From: Holosporales bacterium | GTDB lineage: Bacteria > Pseudomonadota > Alphaproteobacteria > RUG11792 | Reading direction: 5' to 3' | DNA: 64,000 bases | Assembly (NCBI GenBank): GCA_031268935.1 | Contig: JAIRWL010000010.1 | Span: 5,288 to 69,287 of the forward strand | Shown here: one piece after another, positions 7,373-64,000 of the stretch | Layout of the letters: each line of letters begins with the position of its first letter | Position numbering within the stretch: the stretch's first letter is position 1 | Position numbers and translations under genes: made by a program | Notes under the pieces: model-generated | What the model was told of the DNA's origin: nothing | The model's database searches: none | The model's input: the letters and a program-made list of their open reading frames with translations, nothing else

Positions 7373-7596
7373 CAGAAAGCAAATTCAAAGCACTTCGAAT
7401 TGGTATCGAGATGATGAGGGAAGATTATGAGAAATTAAACTAAGCCTGCGCGCGATGTTCATCAGCTCTCCACGGCAGGTTTTCCGAGGCTGCGACAAGG
7501 TCCGACACCACCGGGGAGGAGTCCTGCCCCCTCGGCCCCGACTCTATGCTCCCCGGGGTTGGAGGGAGCCGGGATCTCTCCCTCCTCCCCTCCCAT

Positions 7597-10500
7597 TCAA
7601 GCCTTTTTTCCTGCACCTGCCGCTTCTCCCTCCTCTTCTTCCTCATCCTCGCCGTCCGAGGGAACCTGGATTGATTCGATTGTGGCCGTGATCTCTTCCA
7701 GCTTCGGAGCTATAGATTCGGCATATTCCAGAACCTCACCGAACTCAGCGTTTTGACTTGTGTATTCGACTATAGCATTTATTGCTTGCGCTGTTGCGAT
7801 ACCCTCACTAATCCCTTTCCTCAAATACTCATCGATGGGGATGACGAAAGGACCTCCTCTCTTTTGCCAATCTTCTAAGCTCTCCTGAAAAGACTGCGCA
7901 GCATAAGCAGTCAAGAGTGCCTTGTCTTTGGCCCCACTCCCGAGATACTTATACCTCTCACTCGTGAATGGCCAGCTCCCCATCTCCAAAATTGCTGGGT
8001 CTGTCACAGTGTCCTCCTCCGCGGACCTATCCTTCTGCCTAGACTTGCGGATCTCCCGGAACGAACTGCGTGACCACTCGTGCAGGTTAGCGACCATATC
8101 TGTCGTTATAGCTAGTTGCTTCAATGCGACTTCTAAACCAACGTATTCGGTCAACTCCATTCCTCCCAGCTCGCTGTCCGGTTCCTGCTGTGGAAGCCCC
8201 GCCAATATATCCTTCAGACTGAGGACTATCCTGATAGCTCTCTCCGCGACTTGGTCCATTAAGCTCGTCCCAAAACGTTCATGGAAGTCATAGGTTTTCA
8301 TAAAACTCTCCATGGTCTCCAGCCTGTTCTTCTGTATTTCTTCGGCTTTCTTTTCCCGAGAAATTTTCTGTAATCTATTGAGAGCTAGAGCTCTGTCACT
8401 CACCCATTGCATATACCTACTGTCTTCCCCGGACAGTTCTATCCTTAGCTCCTCGGACACGTCCGACCAATTCTCTAAGGCAGTCTGCAATCGGCGTTCG
8501 ACCCATGCAACCGTGTCTCGCTCCGGAGAATCTTCAGCAAGGAGCGACCTAAAATTCTCCTCATCAGCTGTTAAGGCCCCTTCCTTGTCGGCCAGGTATT
8601 CTCTTAACCCCCGGAGCCCTTTCTGTATTTCTATTACGACTCTCAAAGGACCTTCAACTAAAGTGACGTATTCAGACCAAGGTAAGGACGAGGACTCCGT
8701 GCTCCCGGATGGGACTCTTGATAGCAATTCTTCCATATCGGCTGAAATTCTGCCCGCCCGGTCGTAGAGCTCTTCCTCGGGATCCTCCTTACATCTGATA
8801 TCCATGATCTCCTCTGTAAGCTGGGCGATGATCCTTTGCCTTACCAGCTCTAATTCTAACCGAGCAATGCAAAGGGAATCATTTTCGATCTCCATGATGC
8901 GCTTTTGTTTCTCCTCCTGTGATTCTGCCAGTTCAATTTCGATCTGCTTGAGGAGCTTTTGGTTCTCCGCCTGCAATTTTGCCAGTTCATTCATCAGAGC
9001 AGTTTCTGCTTCCGGGGATACTACAAAATCCTCACCGTCCCCTGCTCCTTGAGCCCTTCCTTGGCCTGGTTGATGCATCAAATCATTCATCTTTCGCAGA
9101 GATTGTTCCCAAGATTTCGCTCGTTCCATTACATTACGCAGCCTTTCTCTGAGGTCGGTACTTAACTTTCCCTGCCCTCTACGTCGTTTGTGCTCCGACT
9201 GAATAAACTTCCGGAGATCCTGCTCGAGCTGATCTAACTTTGCTGCCCCCCGCTCAGCTACCCGCACTCTCTTTGTAAAATCCTCCTTAGGAACTCGCCC
9301 CTCTAGCTCCTGCTGCATCTGATCATCCTGGAATGATTCCAAAACCTTCTTGAAGGCCAACAACGGACTTTCGAATCCGACGACTACCCATTGCCAACCC
9401 GACATTCGGTCGTCCCCTAAACTTTCCCCTATCTTCGAATGTACCTGTTCGGCTATCTCTGCCATCGTTTCCAAGCCTCTCTCTTTACGGGCCCACAAGT
9501 CATGTACCCGTAAGAGGTCCTCCCATTCCTGGTCATTTGAGAGGGACGGCCCCTCCGGGAGGTATTCCATTCTCCTTCGTAAATGGGCAAATACTTCTTC
9601 TAACTCCCTCAATCTCAACTTGGCTTCCTCCAACAGGTCCGGGACTTGCTCTGCTCTGACACCTTCCCCGGCTAGTAAGGTTCCCTTGTATGCCTGCTCC
9701 AAAGCTTTTTTAGTTAATTCGATTCGTCTGCCTACCCCTGCTCCGAATCTCCCTCTGAAGGTGCGGTTGCCTCCCTGCCACTTATCCATATTCCGAGCGG
9801 CCCGCTCTTGCGTGTCCAGGCGGGCTAGAAATTCTTGGATCTGAGACAACAATCTTGCCTGTATCCGTGGAAATCTGGAAGGGACTACTCCCGCTGGTTC
9901 GATCCCTTGGCCACCCGAAGCAATCTGCTCCTGCAACACCCGGAATTCTGCCTCCATCCTCCCGCATTCGGCTTGCAAGCTTGCTGCCCGTTCTAATAAA
10001 GCTCTCTTGGTTAGATATGTTCCTCGGAAATTCGGGACCCACCGAGCGAATTTTTCCCGCAATTCCCCATATCCCCACTTTCCTTTCTCGGCTATCTCTT
10101 CGATTAGTCTCCAGACCGGAACAACCCTTGAAAGGGCCGCCCCGACGATGCTCCTCAATCTCGGCGCTTGAGCCTGAAGCGATGCCTTGGTCCGCCCTAG
10201 CTCTGCCCGAAGGGCGATCTGCTCGAGTTCTTTGGTTGCCTCGATGGCCTCGCGCACCTGCTCTTGGAGGCCCTCTGTGAAGTCTTGCCAAGTCGAGAGG
10301 AGCCTATCCCCTTCAGGGGCCCCTCTAAGCCTGACTACAGAACTCTCGGATAGTTGAGGAATCAGCCTGGCTAGGACGGTCAATGGAAGTTCTGCCCTGC
10401 TCACCAATTCTGAAAATCCCCAAGCCTCTAAATCCTCCCGCCCACGCAGTAAACGCCCCGCCTCCTCCAAGCTGCTCACGGCCGCCACTATTTCGTCACC

Positions 10501-10716
10501 TCCTAGCCACCCTTTGTCATCCAAGTCAGTTGCCTCAGCCAAGATTTGCTGCCTTTCTGCCCCCCTCCTGTCCAACACTGACATCGTTGTCCGGGTGCTA
10601 CTACTCCAAGGACTCAGCAAAGAGCCTGGCGGTCGTCTTGTACTCGCCTCTAAGCCATGACTATTAATCAATACAATTAAAGGTAACCCAAGAATTGTCA
10701 CTAATCGCTTATTCAT
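7597..10716 (-). CDS. Family A secreted coiled-coil protein (about 1039 aa), acidic C-terminus
   Basis: Long GC-rich ORF. The likely start is the ATG at 10716, giving MNKRLVTILGLPLIVLINSHGLEAS (signal-peptide-like). Glu/Arg/Leu/Gln-rich heptad-like sequence. Shares the W-x-G-G-x-x-x-F-x-G-x-F block and a C-terminal P-F-x-x-P-I-D-x-Y block with the 12946-14643 and 11042-12629 genes. Confidence 0.7.
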   Translation of the reverse strand: MNKRLVTILGLPLIVLINSHGLEASTRRPPGSLLSPWSSSTRTTMSVLDRRGAERQQILAEATDLDDKGWLGGDEIVAAVSSLEEAGRLLRGREDLEAWGFSELVSRAELPLTVLARLIPQLSESSVVRLRGAPEGDRLLSTWQDFTEGLQEQVREAIEATKELEQIALRAELGRTKASLQAQAPRLRSIVGAALSRVVPVWRLIEEIAEKGKWGYGELREKFARWVPNFRGTYLTKRALLERAASLQAECGRMEAEFRVLQEQIASGGQGIEPAGVVPSRFPRIQARLLSQIQEFLARLDTQERAARNMDKWQGGNRTFRGRFGAGVGRRIELTKKALEQAYKGTLLAGEGVRAEQVPDLLEEAKLRLRELEEVFAHLRRRMEYLPEGPSLSNDQEWEDLLRVHDLWARKERGLETMAEIAEQVHSKIGESLGDDRMSGWQWVVVGFESPLLAFKKVLESFQDDQMQQELEGRVPKEDFTKRVRVAERGAAKLDQLEQDLRKFIQSEHKRRRGQGKLSTDLRERLRNVMERAKSWEQSLRKMNDLMHQPGQGRAQGAGDGEDFVVSPEAETALMNELAKLQAENQKLLKQIEIELAESQEEKQKRIMEIENDSLCIARLELELVRQRIIAQLTEEIMDIRCKEDPEEELYDRAGRISADMEELLSRVPSGSTESSSLPWSEYVTLVEGPLRVVIEIQKGLRGLREYLADKEGALTADEENFRSLLAEDSPERDTVAWVERRLQTALENWSDVSEELRIELSGEDSRYMQWVSDRALALNRLQKISREKKAEEIQKNRLETMESFMKTYDFHERFGTSLMDQVAERAIRIVLSLKDILAGLPQQEPDSELGGMELTEYVGLEVALKQLAITTDMVANLHEWSRSSFREIRKSRQKDRSAEEDTVTDPAILEMGSWPFTSERYKYLGSGAKDKALLTAYAAQSFQESLEDWQKRGGPFVIPIDEYLRKGISEGIATAQAINAIVEYTSQNAEFGEVLEYAESIAPKLEEITATIESIQVPSDGEDEEEEEGEAAGAGKKA

Positions 10717-10751
10717 CCTATCGTTCTTTCCTTCCAACTACTTCAGGAGGC

Positions 10752-63139: not shown

Positions 63140-63304
63140 TCTACTCTCGATGGATTTAAACTTATCAAATCAGAATGGCGGCAGATGATTAACCAGTAGC
63201 TCACTGAGTCGTACATACTAAGTGACTCTCCAGCTCTCGAGCTTTTTTTAAGTTGCGGGGGCTGGATGTTCTCTCAATCCACCTACCTAGATTGCTCTAG
63301 AGGA

Positions 63305-63574
63305 GGGGTGTCTAGAGATTGTCGGGCTTATAGCATCAGACATTTAATCTGAACTGCTGCTTCACAAATGAACTCACTCCTTTAGTATATCTCGTTACGA
63401 TTCCTCATCTATCCTCGCAACCTCTCAAGGTCGTTTCATTATCCTGGGGGTGTCTAGAGATAGTCGGACTTATAGCATCAAACATTTAATCTGAACTGCT
63501 GCTTCCAAGGAACTCACTCTTTTAGTATATCTCGTTCCTATCCCTCTCTAGCCTCGCGACCTCTCAAGATCGTT
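63305..63574 (+). repeat. Two copies of an approximately 130-bp noncoding unit (period 142 bp)
   Basis: ggggtgtctagagat.gtcgg.cttatagcatca.acatttaatctgaactgctgcttc...gaactcactc.tttagtatatctcgtt...cctcgc.acctctcaag.tcgtt at 63305-63435 and 63447-63574. Confidence 0.75.
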
Positions 63575-64000
63575 GTCTATCAACTGTCTCTTCTTTTATA
63601 CAACTCGTTATTAGAGAGAAGTAGAGGATGTATTACCCGGTCGTGATCCCAGACTCTTCAGCTGTCCCTCTGATAACATCCCAGCATATTGGACTGTTTG
63701 TATCCGTTCGACCTGTGTACAATCCGCCGTCGTACCGTCCTGTAGCAAAAATTATGACCGAAATACCAAGATCTCCCTCAATAACAGACGTATCTTACCG
63801 GTGACTCCCTTTTTTTTGAGACTTTCGTTTATTTAATTTCCTCCCCATACTTAAAATTTCTTCCCCATACTTTAAAGAGTGTGTTGATTGGATATCAATT
63901 TATTCAATTCGTCTCCCGCTCTTATAATACCTGTCCTAGCGGTGGCCTGTAACTCGTAGTCTGCCCCTACCAGATCGAACGGCACCATGGGCGGAATGAG

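Follow-up and report, generated by a model that had tools for sequence, protein, structure and literature searches.

A stretch of 64,000 nt from a metagenome-assembled genome (MAG) of a Holosporales bacterium (referred to as the window) consists of an AT-rich backbone of conserved genes interrupted by seven GC-rich blocks, or islands. On balance, we favour the reading that these islands specify about a dozen lineage-specific, Sec-exported host-interface proteins that evolve fast and are in part phase-variable, and that the blocks are made up of the bodies of these genes, their 3′ flanks and their relics. Holosporales are bacteria living inside or on eukaryotic hosts. Sec would carry the island proteins to the periplasm or the cell surface, where they would function at the interface with the host, and slipped-strand changes in poly-G/C tracts would turn part of the gene set on and off. 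They would not be cargo of the type VI secretion system (T6SS), because Sec signals are present and no T6SS-linked domain is; T6SS substrates lack Sec signals.

GC-rich blocks and their exported proteins

The seven blocks cover 27,127 nt (42% of the window) and have a pooled GC content of 0.536, compared with 0.407 outside (blocks 1 to 7: 0.525, 0.532, 0.593, 0.487, 0.596, 0.520 and 0.527). The difference was also seen in 300-nt windows (mean GC 0.536 ± 0.055 in the blocks and 0.408 ± 0.056 outside), in a 500-nt profile (about 0.31–0.47 in the backbone and 0.48–0.64 in the blocks) and at the gene level, where 16 island open reading frames (ORFs) and 27 backbone ORFs had a GC content of 0.528 and 0.418, respectively (Mann–Whitney p = 5e-7), and a GC content at third codon positions (GC3) of 0.522 and 0.413 (p = 1e-6). 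Seven GC-rich blocks in an AT-rich backbone had been described in an earlier note on this DNA (the original prediction), and windowed and gene-level values agree with that description, block 4, which is mildly GC-rich (0.487), being the weak case. The hand counts given there are exact (19 G+C in 1021–1080, 35 in 9901–9960 and 8 in 45601–45660).

The composition border lies inside continuous ORFs, as had been proposed, and it is present at synonymous sites too: GC3 is 0.41–0.45 over codons 1–40 of the island ORFs and 0.51–0.54 from codon 41 onwards, and backbone genes show no GC3 step after codon 40. About 100 nt precede each long island ORF as an upstream region of its own, with a mean GC content of 0.37, a TATAAT-like box and a ribosome-binding site. 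Sec-type signal peptides were predicted at 11 island N-termini by a home-made heuristic (positive n-region, hydrophobic h-region of 7–15 residues, AxA-like site), and these N-termini carry the small residues at −3 and −1 that are typical of signal peptidase I sites. These results demonstrate that each island gene is a unit of its own, in which an AT-rich segment with a −10 box of the sigma-70 type, a ribosome-binding site and the code for a predicted tripartite signal peptide precedes a GC-rich body. Signal peptides had been attributed to the island ORFs in general; this applies to the 11 N-termini but not to several other ORFs, which lack one because they are downstream halves of frame-split genes.

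The bodies are of two types. The first is disordered and rich in Pro, Gly, Gln, Ala, Arg and Glu; ORFs of 1368, 410, 188 and 267 aa were classed as disordered by a charge–hydropathy plot. The second is helix-rich, with long helices and internal repeats. A C-terminal transmembrane segment was predicted in one restored island protein (see below) and in two ORFs of a related symbiont.

The island proteins had been said to contain no recognisable domain, and the searches bear this out. The scanned island ORFs had no match in Pfam, NCBIfam or PHROG except for one marginal PHROG match (E 0.0017), and the two island proteins compared with PDB sequences had none. Among 5.8 billion protein clusters, the 565-aa and 1046-aa proteins matched only themselves; for the 1170-aa protein there was none among the matches listed from these clusters, which is a weaker negative. 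An exhaustive phmmer search with the 518-aa protein against 1.84 billion representatives returned just a 57-aa identical fragment of itself. No relatives of island proteins were found in GTDB genomes or JGI metagenome contigs, and neither island proteins nor island DNA matched phages or plasmids (tblastn/blastn). The island ORFs showed no Pfam match to the autotransporter or Chlam_PMP models at E<=1 and no effector, PAAR or VgrG domain that would point to T6SS effectors; only island 5 adjoins tssB.

Contrary to the original prediction, not all of the GC-rich DNA encodes such proteins. Block 6 (55.2–56.46 kb) is largely ORF-less, as is block 5 over its left 1.15 kb, and the earlier note had overlooked both segments as well as the homopolymer frame breaks described below. 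The first segment (49286–50443) lies 3′ of the 267-aa gene of island 5 and has a GC content of 0.58 and a CpG observed/expected ratio (CpG o/e) of 0.61; the second (55196–56240, island 6) has a GC content of 0.52. In both, stop codons occur at random density in all six frames. Apart from tRNA, the segments gave no Rfam match at E<=1 and no plasmid match, and folding of 49290–50250 compared with shuffled sequences gave z-scores of −0.55 and −1.54. Three identities were considered and rejected: structured RNA (no Rfam match, unremarkable folding energies), recently broken genes (random stop density in six frames, no significant similarity to island proteins) and an alternative genetic code with TAA/TAG or TGA reassigned (each stop type occurs in every frame).

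The longest homopolymer in the window, C12 (55268–55279), lies in the second segment, 73 nt past the stop codon of a 99-aa signal-peptide ORF and in no reading frame. Two tandem repeats were seen in non-coding DNA 3′ of island genes, one of 139 bp at 55392–55648 (1.8 copies, 90% matches) and one of about 131 bp at 63305–63574 (2 copies, 88.5% identity), which is unlike the 139-bp repeat.

Origin of the GC excess

Foreign origin and GC-biased gene conversion had been offered as causes of the elevated GC, and the largest contribution was left out. When the island proteins were recoded with backbone codon usage, the expected GC content averaged 0.494 (observed, 0.528; backbone, 0.418), and therefore about 69% of the excess is due to amino-acid composition. 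The island proteins are enriched in Pro, Gln, Ala, Arg, Gly and Glu and contain roughly half as much Ile, Lys, Phe and Asn. In the two GC-richest ORFs the GC comes from codon positions 1 and 2 (GC1 about 0.73, GC2 about 0.6, GC3 just 0.47), and the AT-rich 5′ ends are partly the necessary look of a Lys/Leu/Ile/Phe-rich signal peptide. These findings, together with a GC3 of about 0.40, which is not raised, in the same gene class of related symbionts (L082 and L083, see below), would suit native genes under selection for a disordered or helical protein composition and with no separate DNA history. As a complete account, however, this is unlikely, since GC3 exceeds the amino-acid-matched expectation in 16/16 island ORFs (by 0.04–0.20), and since CpG is low both at codon 3|1 junctions (CpG o/e 0.78 in the islands and 1.28 in the backbone) and in the 5.7 kb of non-ORF island DNA (0.76), of which 2.2 kb is frameless.

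The island DNA carries a second signature. CpG o/e is 0.53–1.02 in island ORFs (median about 0.77) and 0.81–1.40 in backbone ORFs (median about 1.2). C-ending two-fold codons are about doubled in the islands, NCG codons are reduced, and CCC, GGG and AGG are raised. The Karlin delta* between backbone and islands was 118, compared with 33 (maximum 54) between random backbone halves and 39 between random island halves; the islands are therefore alike among themselves and unlike the backbone, non-coding DNA included. No TpG/CpA excess accompanies the loss of CpG; the over-represented dinucleotides are CC/GG and AG/CT. CpG depletion as the genome's own mutational equilibrium was ruled out by the native intergenic DNA, which has a CpG o/e of 1.09 at a GC content of 0.36. 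About one third of the GC excess is thus a DNA-level signature, consisting of raised GC3, lowered CpG and an excess of CC/GG and AG/CT. GC-biased gene conversion does not predict the CpG loss. The signature could have come with foreign DNA placed behind native export modules, or from a local process acting on these genes.

The related symbiont sequences L081, L082 and L083, whose tssBC genes share about 77% nucleotide identity with those of the window (about 23% diverged), carry signal-peptide, Gly/Arg/Pro-rich ORFs upstream of tssB, in the same place as island 5. The CpG o/e of these ORFs is 0.37–0.59, compared with 0.9–1.2 in their own backbones. That relatives this diverged have this CpG-poor class at a shared position implies that the signature has persisted. 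The more distant L084 has no such ORFs around tssBC. The place of island 5 beside tssB is conserved, and this is probably incidental. In the three copies of a 98-codon repeat, polarised changes numbered 28 from G/C to A/T and 20 in the opposite direction at a GC content of 0.61 (11 and 11 at third positions; a small sample), suggesting no AT-ward decay.

It is possible, though doubtful, that bodies and flanks were acquired from an unsampled donor, perhaps the eukaryotic host, and are expressed behind native modules. This concerns origin and can be compatible with the favoured reading of exported host-interface proteins. It would fit the difference of the islands in GC, GC3 and dinucleotides, which extends to their non-coding DNA and not to native intergenic DNA, the rise of GC3 only past about codon 40 and the mutual likeness of the islands. 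The islands also lie between syntenic core genes, with a LolE–tssB gap of 2.2 kb in the window and 0.8 kb in L081; no homologue is known; and two tRNA genes lie in or beside islands, namely tRNA-Ser(GGA) inside island 1 (14886–14976, + strand) and tRNA-Val(GAC) at the right edge of island 6 (56474–56548, − strand). However, there is no integrase or mobility gene among the window ORFs, and no phage or plasmid match. Att-like repeats of the tRNA-Ser and tRNA-Val 3′ ends were not found, and tRNA-linked integration was rejected for that reason. Homologues of the island proteins searched were likewise absent from databases including metagenomes and assemblies of SRA runs, some of which yielded contigs of related symbionts. 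In addition, the relatives hold the CpG-poor class at the same position, persisting rather than ameliorated, the 98-codon repeats show no AT-ward decay, and CpG was lost without a TpG/CpA excess. The separate dinucleotide signature thus favours the proposed foreign origin, and the missing decay and the persistence of the signature in relatives weaken it.

A bolder version of acquisition was also considered and appears unlikely to us: native cassettes of promoter, ribosome-binding site and signal peptide, with a poly-G switch in the relatives, placed before foreign GC-rich, CpG-poor DNA, maybe captured from the host, would form a generator of new exported proteins. The symbiont would then keep creating, phase-varying and discarding orphan proteins, and the ORF-less segments would be their raw material or remains; this too is improbable.

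That the assembler joined GC-rich pieces from another organism into this contig is a very remote prospect, although the window comes from a MAG and the blocks look foreign in composition and dinucleotides. At least 14 junctions would be needed in one contig, several long ORFs read across them, and paralogues share both AT-rich 5′ modules and homologous GC-rich bodies. Furthermore, the L082 (JGI 3300042643) and L083 (Logan SRR14710922) assemblies are 100% identical over 6,156 nt, including such a junction next to tssB, and the 57-aa identical fragment of the 518-aa protein stands as a separate record. The earlier judgement that misassembly is unlikely agrees with ORFs that cross composition borders and with the two concordant assemblies of a relative.

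Frame breaks at G/C tracts and the pace of change

All G/C runs of at least 7 nt in the window are inside the islands, and three of the three split genes break exactly at such a run (G10, G9 or C7); in each, a 1-nt change restores the ORF. The first is a paralogue of the 565-aa gene in island 1 (11042–12629, − strand), which is read as ORFs 11742–12512 and 11042–11725. Its tblastn collinearity with the 565-aa protein changes frame between 11955 and 11902, and the break is at a G10 tract (11923–11932; C10 on the coding strand, Pro-Pro-Pro). Removal of 1 nt from G10 gives a 489-aa ORF from GTG 12512 to the end of 11042–11725 that is collinear with the 565-aa paralogue. An extra frameshift near 11.73 kb was considered and is unneeded, G10 alone accounting for the split. 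The second is a signal-peptide gene of island 2 (18946–19928, − strand), read as ORFs of 159 aa and 188 aa, between which lies a G9 tract (19459–19467); addition of 1 nt gives a 327-aa ORF. The third is a gene of island 4 (37828–39059, − strand), read as ORFs of 89 aa (counted from the Met of the signal peptide; listed as 117 aa from an upstream TTG) and 321 aa and broken at a C7 tract (38793–38799). Addition of 1 nt gives a 410-aa ORF with a predicted N-terminal signal peptide (MRQRKFLIKSILLMLSG...) and a predicted C-terminal transmembrane segment. In the backbone ORFs, none of 12 A/T runs of 7–8 nt is frameshifted, and therefore the assembly is not generally unreliable at homopolymers.

Longer tracts were found in L082, where two tandem paralogues (246–1023 and 1074–2028) with an 87% identical 5′ module carry G14 and G13 tracts (positions 307 and 1135). 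The module consists of an ATG, 21 codons (MKIFNKFANKNVGKPG..RRW), the G14 or G13 tract and then the hydrophobic core of the signal peptide. Both paralogues are out of frame by 1 nt; removal of 1 nt gives proteins of 258 aa and 317 aa with a predicted signal peptide and C-terminal transmembrane segment, of which the gene callers gave downstream fragments only. A rough estimate puts chance at about 1e-4 such runs per 5 kb, so that these tracts lie far beyond it. The layout appears to be that of classical contingency genes. The breaks at homopolymers and the L082 tracts thus make the island genes look like fast-evolving, possibly phase-variable, Sec-exported host-interface proteins.

Two families are present in the window, one comprising the 565-aa gene, the neighbouring paralogue and, weakly, the 1046-aa gene, and the other the 159/188-aa gene and the 410-aa gene (17463–18776). 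Comparison of 5′ modules gave z = 66 for the 565-aa gene and its paralogue (79% identity over 242 nt), z = 49 for the 159-aa and 410-aa genes, and z = 4.6 for the 1046-aa and 565-aa genes. A single 5′ module for all island genes was ruled out, similarity being found within families only. The promoter and signal-peptide modules of paralogues are 79–86% identical at the nucleotide level, and one pair is alike at the 3′ end too; their bodies are 25–47% identical at the protein level or unalignable. The bodies thus appear to evolve almost without sequence constraint, by repeat expansion and tandem duplication, and the 5′ export module stays similar. Such evolution explains the missing homologues, and the pattern is compatible with selection on the exported part being either diversifying or relaxed.

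Close strains for dN/dS were not found, the backbone proteins being singleton clusters at 90% identity except for an HtrA-like protease and TssC; the second member of the protease cluster is another start-site version from the same contig. Between internal repeats, dN/dS was 0.50–0.73 in the 1368-aa ORF, 1.27 in the 1170-aa ORF and 1.03 in the 410-aa ORF (17463–18776), and comparison of the 159-aa and 410-aa paralogues over their N-terminal parts gave 0.72. The original prediction of a large, fast-evolving signal-peptide set is in line with these repeat values (0.5–1.3) and with positional counterparts in relatives that are unrecognisably different.

Several results weigh against the reading as exported, partly phase-variable proteins. 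The signal peptides were called by the heuristic only, and both AlphaFold2 models are unusable, with a predicted local distance difference test score of 44.5 for the 565-aa protein (helices only, low confidence) and 34.5 for the 518-aa protein. Under a first-order Markov model, 11.4 G/C runs of at least 7 nt and 1.26 of at least 9 nt are expected in the islands, and 7 and 3 were seen; the tracts of the window may thus merely follow from the use of CCC/GGG codons, and errors in the consensus or ordinary inactivating mutations may account for the breaks. A TAG at signal-peptide codon 20 of the 11042–12629 paralogue and a lost ATG in another copy (ACG in the 17463–18776 gene, where its paralogue has ATG) indicate that some decay is real. 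A dN/dS near 1 is equally expected of non-functional ORFs, and the two GC-rich non-coding segments (1.0–1.2 kb) lie outside what the favoured model explains.

Alternatively, the islands would be decaying junk, that is, pseudogenes or chance ORFs in GC-rich DNA with ordinary inactivating mutations as breaks. In line with this, two repeat pairs have dN/dS near 1, there are three frame breaks besides the TAG and the lost ATG, two segments are ORF-less, and the homopolymer counts fit chance. We nevertheless regard this as rather improbable. ORFs of 1046, 1170 and 1368 codons stand where random sequence has 3–4 stops per 100 codons, and every long ORF begins with a ribosome-binding site and a signal peptide. 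The repeats of the 1368-aa ORF have dN/dS of 0.5–0.7, and in L082 two paralogues whose 5′ modules are conserved have their G13 and G14 tracts at matching positions, which chance would hardly produce. Finally, 42% junk in 64 kb is unexpected for a reduced symbiont genome. Exported host-interface proteins, some of them decayed, therefore remain the reading that we prefer.

Gene map, neighbourhood and comparison with known systems

Island 1 contains, besides the split paralogue, three genes on the − strand. The gene at 7597–10716 encodes about 1040 aa (MNKRLVTILGLPLIV...; ORF 7597–10737, 1046 codons) of helix-rich, Glu/Arg/Leu/Ala-rich sequence, with its own TATAAT box and ribosome-binding site, a GC content of 0.51, GC3 of 0.54 and CpG o/e of 0.79; NCBI gives it as LBI20_01000, 995 aa from a later ATG, excluding the signal peptide. 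The 565-aa signal-peptide protein (MNKYVLNSFGLSLMLL...; 12946–14643) is MDR1475885 / LBI20_01010, and the 518-aa signal-peptide protein (15234–16790) has a Pro-rich C-terminal half. In island 2, the gene at 17463–18776 (− strand) encodes a disordered protein with two repeats of 74 aa and has its 5′ and 3′ ends in common with the neighbouring gene.

Island 3 is occupied by one gene on the − strand (24153–28250), whose 1368-codon ORF gives a protein of about 1365 aa (MINKKLLLICLAPMTI...), Pro/Gly/Gln/Ala-rich and on the disordered side of the charge–hydropathy plot. It contains three 98-aa repeats (27065–27911) and further repeats, with GC1 0.74, GC2 0.56, GC3 0.48 and CpG o/e 0.62. Two antisense ORFs within it (25274–25891, + strand, 205 aa; 26810–27943, + strand, 377 aa) are most likely by-products of the low stop density in GC-rich repeats, not genes. 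In island 4, a 267-aa ORF (35473–36276, + strand) has an N-terminal hydrophobic segment and a borderline composition (GC 0.48, CpG o/e 1.02), and a signal-peptide protein of about 306 aa is encoded at 36696–37616 (− strand).

The 267-aa signal-peptide protein of island 5 (50444–51247, − strand) is Gly/Arg/Pro/Gln-rich, divergent from tssB, and has a CpG o/e of 0.53. The LolE and TssB accessions are consecutive, so this ORF is apparently without an NCBI protein. Island 6 includes the 99-aa signal-peptide ORF (MKINNLALAGIMFQLLSYSNMQSHA...; 54896–55195, + strand). Outside the named blocks, a 219-aa domain-less ORF without a signal peptide (56748–57407, − strand) is like the islands in composition, with a GC content of 0.49 and a CpG o/e of 0.75. 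Island 7 encodes a 1170-aa signal-peptide protein (59627–63139, + strand) with two 163-aa repeats (59732–60725), helical segments and Pro-rich linkers.

The window lies on a 98,775-bp MAG contig that carries the proteins of NCBI MDR1475877-925 ("MAG: Holosporales bacterium"); many backbone proteins, as well as the 565-aa protein of island 1, match these exactly. The housekeeping backbone comprises genes for RNase PH, LeuRS, L9, UDP-glucose dehydrogenase, FtsZ, FtsA, TsaD, HolC, S9, L13, S1, KdsA, a prolidase-like peptidase, an OmpA/Pal-like protein and LolE; it further includes the gene for an HtrA-like protease and those for the T6SS sheath, tssB and tssC. No close relative of FtsZ was found among GTDB species representatives; full-length matches were a Holosporaceae MAG (61%) and a Rickettsia (56%). 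A 2025 review of Holosporales describes an uncharacterised clade frequent in the guts of termites and other animals and places it in 'Ca. Paracaedibacteraceae', and we infer that the MAG may belong to this gut-associated clade.

The division genes do not form their usual cluster: ftsZ (20313–21665, + strand) and ftsA (29594–30913, − strand) are about 8 kb apart on opposite strands, and the interval is occupied by island 3, an antitoxin-like ORF and genes for a hexapeptide transferase and an MFS transporter. The antitoxin-like ORF (22080–22385, + strand) is of the Phd/YefM type by eye, and for the related symbiont Bodocaedibacter toxin–antitoxin systems are stressed in the title of the paper (PMC8163844). 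A MORN-repeat protein (4190–4765, + strand; PF07661, E=1.4e-14) adjoins a 223-aa domain-less ORF (3512–4183, + strand) with a rather low CpG o/e of 0.86. Opposite outliers with a GC content of 0.31–0.33 are a hexapeptide acyltransferase (22386–23785), a sulfatase-family, EptA-like protein (45445–46944) and a histidine-kinase-like protein (57765–58745); these very AT-rich genes may be a second class of atypical DNA. In the HtrA-like protease gene (53534–54715, + strand), the C-terminal half (about 54001–54500) reaches a GC content of 0.53 with a CpG o/e of about 0.83, so its 3′ half is partly island-like although the gene is conserved backbone. Two paralogous small ORFs of about 78 aa (7136–7372 and 39382–39618, both + strand) flank islands, the first immediately to the left of island 1 and the second immediately to the right of island 4, and their upstream regions are 77% identical over 320 nt. 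They contain a Myb/SANT-like or helix-turn-helix (HTH) motif, KHKRRN.WT.AE.EILR.GF..GKRIKTIAYEIGRS..AV.KF.SRSG, whose sole Pfam match is weak (HTH_58, E=7.5e-4), and could be island-linked regulators.

Stochastic on/off variation of surface or secreted proteins is familiar chiefly from mucosal pathogens and chlamydiae; provided that the homopolymer switches are genuine, it would extend to alphaproteobacterial symbionts associated with protists and guts. Other Holosporales MAGs could be mined for AT-rich signal peptides followed by GC-rich, CpG-poor bodies. A gene class that runs against the genome bias and is kept across species also provides a test case for amelioration, GC-biased gene conversion and selection on disordered-protein composition. 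According to the 2025 review, little is understood of how Holosporales interact with their hosts, and they have no known secreted molecule. The only candidate route that it gives is the T6SS, which nearly all Holosporineae conserve and Holospora lacks; phase variation is not mentioned. The islands provide about a dozen concrete candidate host-interaction proteins, predicted to be Sec- rather than T6SS-dependent, where this review names none. No such variable repertoire of orphan exported proteins has been described before in this symbiont group.

The islands resemble classical genomic islands in their atypical GC and dinucleotides, their position between core genes and the two tRNA genes in or beside them, but they have no integrase, att site or mobility gene, and the atypical composition starts inside genes, after the signal peptide. 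'Candidatus Liberibacter' and phytoplasmas, which are host-restricted and have reduced genomes, possess candidate orphan Sec effectors that are mostly small and known mainly by their N-terminal signal peptide. The island proteins are likewise orphans with a predicted Sec signal peptide; unlike those effectors, they can be as long as about 1365 aa, contain many repeats and run counter to the genome bias in composition. The tandem-repeat proteins of Ehrlichia and Anaplasma are disordered, lineage-specific, fast-evolving effectors of AT-rich intracellular alphaproteobacteria, but they lack a Sec signal peptide, leave the cell by type I secretion and are acidic and Ser-rich, whereas the island proteins have predicted Sec signal peptides and are Pro/Gly/Gln/Arg-rich. 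Within the same order, the infectious form of Holospora has periplasmic proteins of 89 kDa and 63 kDa that are released or translocated during infection (cited in PMC11909080). These proteins are exported, as is predicted for the island proteins; Holospora lacks the T6SS found in the lineage of the window.

Among poly-G/C contingency genes, the chlamydial pmpG family is the closest intracellular case: Chlamydia trachomatis pmpG has an in-frame poly(G) tract of 8–9 nt, and the C. pneumoniae pmpG family is similar (PMC4488443). The island proteins differ from the chlamydial Pmp proteins in having neither Pmp motifs nor an autotransporter barrel, and they come from an alphaproteobacterial symbiont. 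Phase-variable contingency genes with poly-G/C tracts are also known among the surface genes of Campylobacter and Neisseria, and in Neisseria opa the repeat lies in the region coding for the signal peptide. The tracts of the window are unlike those of contingency genes in that they lie mid-gene and are no commoner than composition predicts. As in contingency genes, however, the predicted exported-protein genes described here carry in-frame G/C tracts of 7–14 nt at which 1 nt decides whether the full protein is made, and the G13 and G14 tracts of L082 stand in the same place as the opa repeat.

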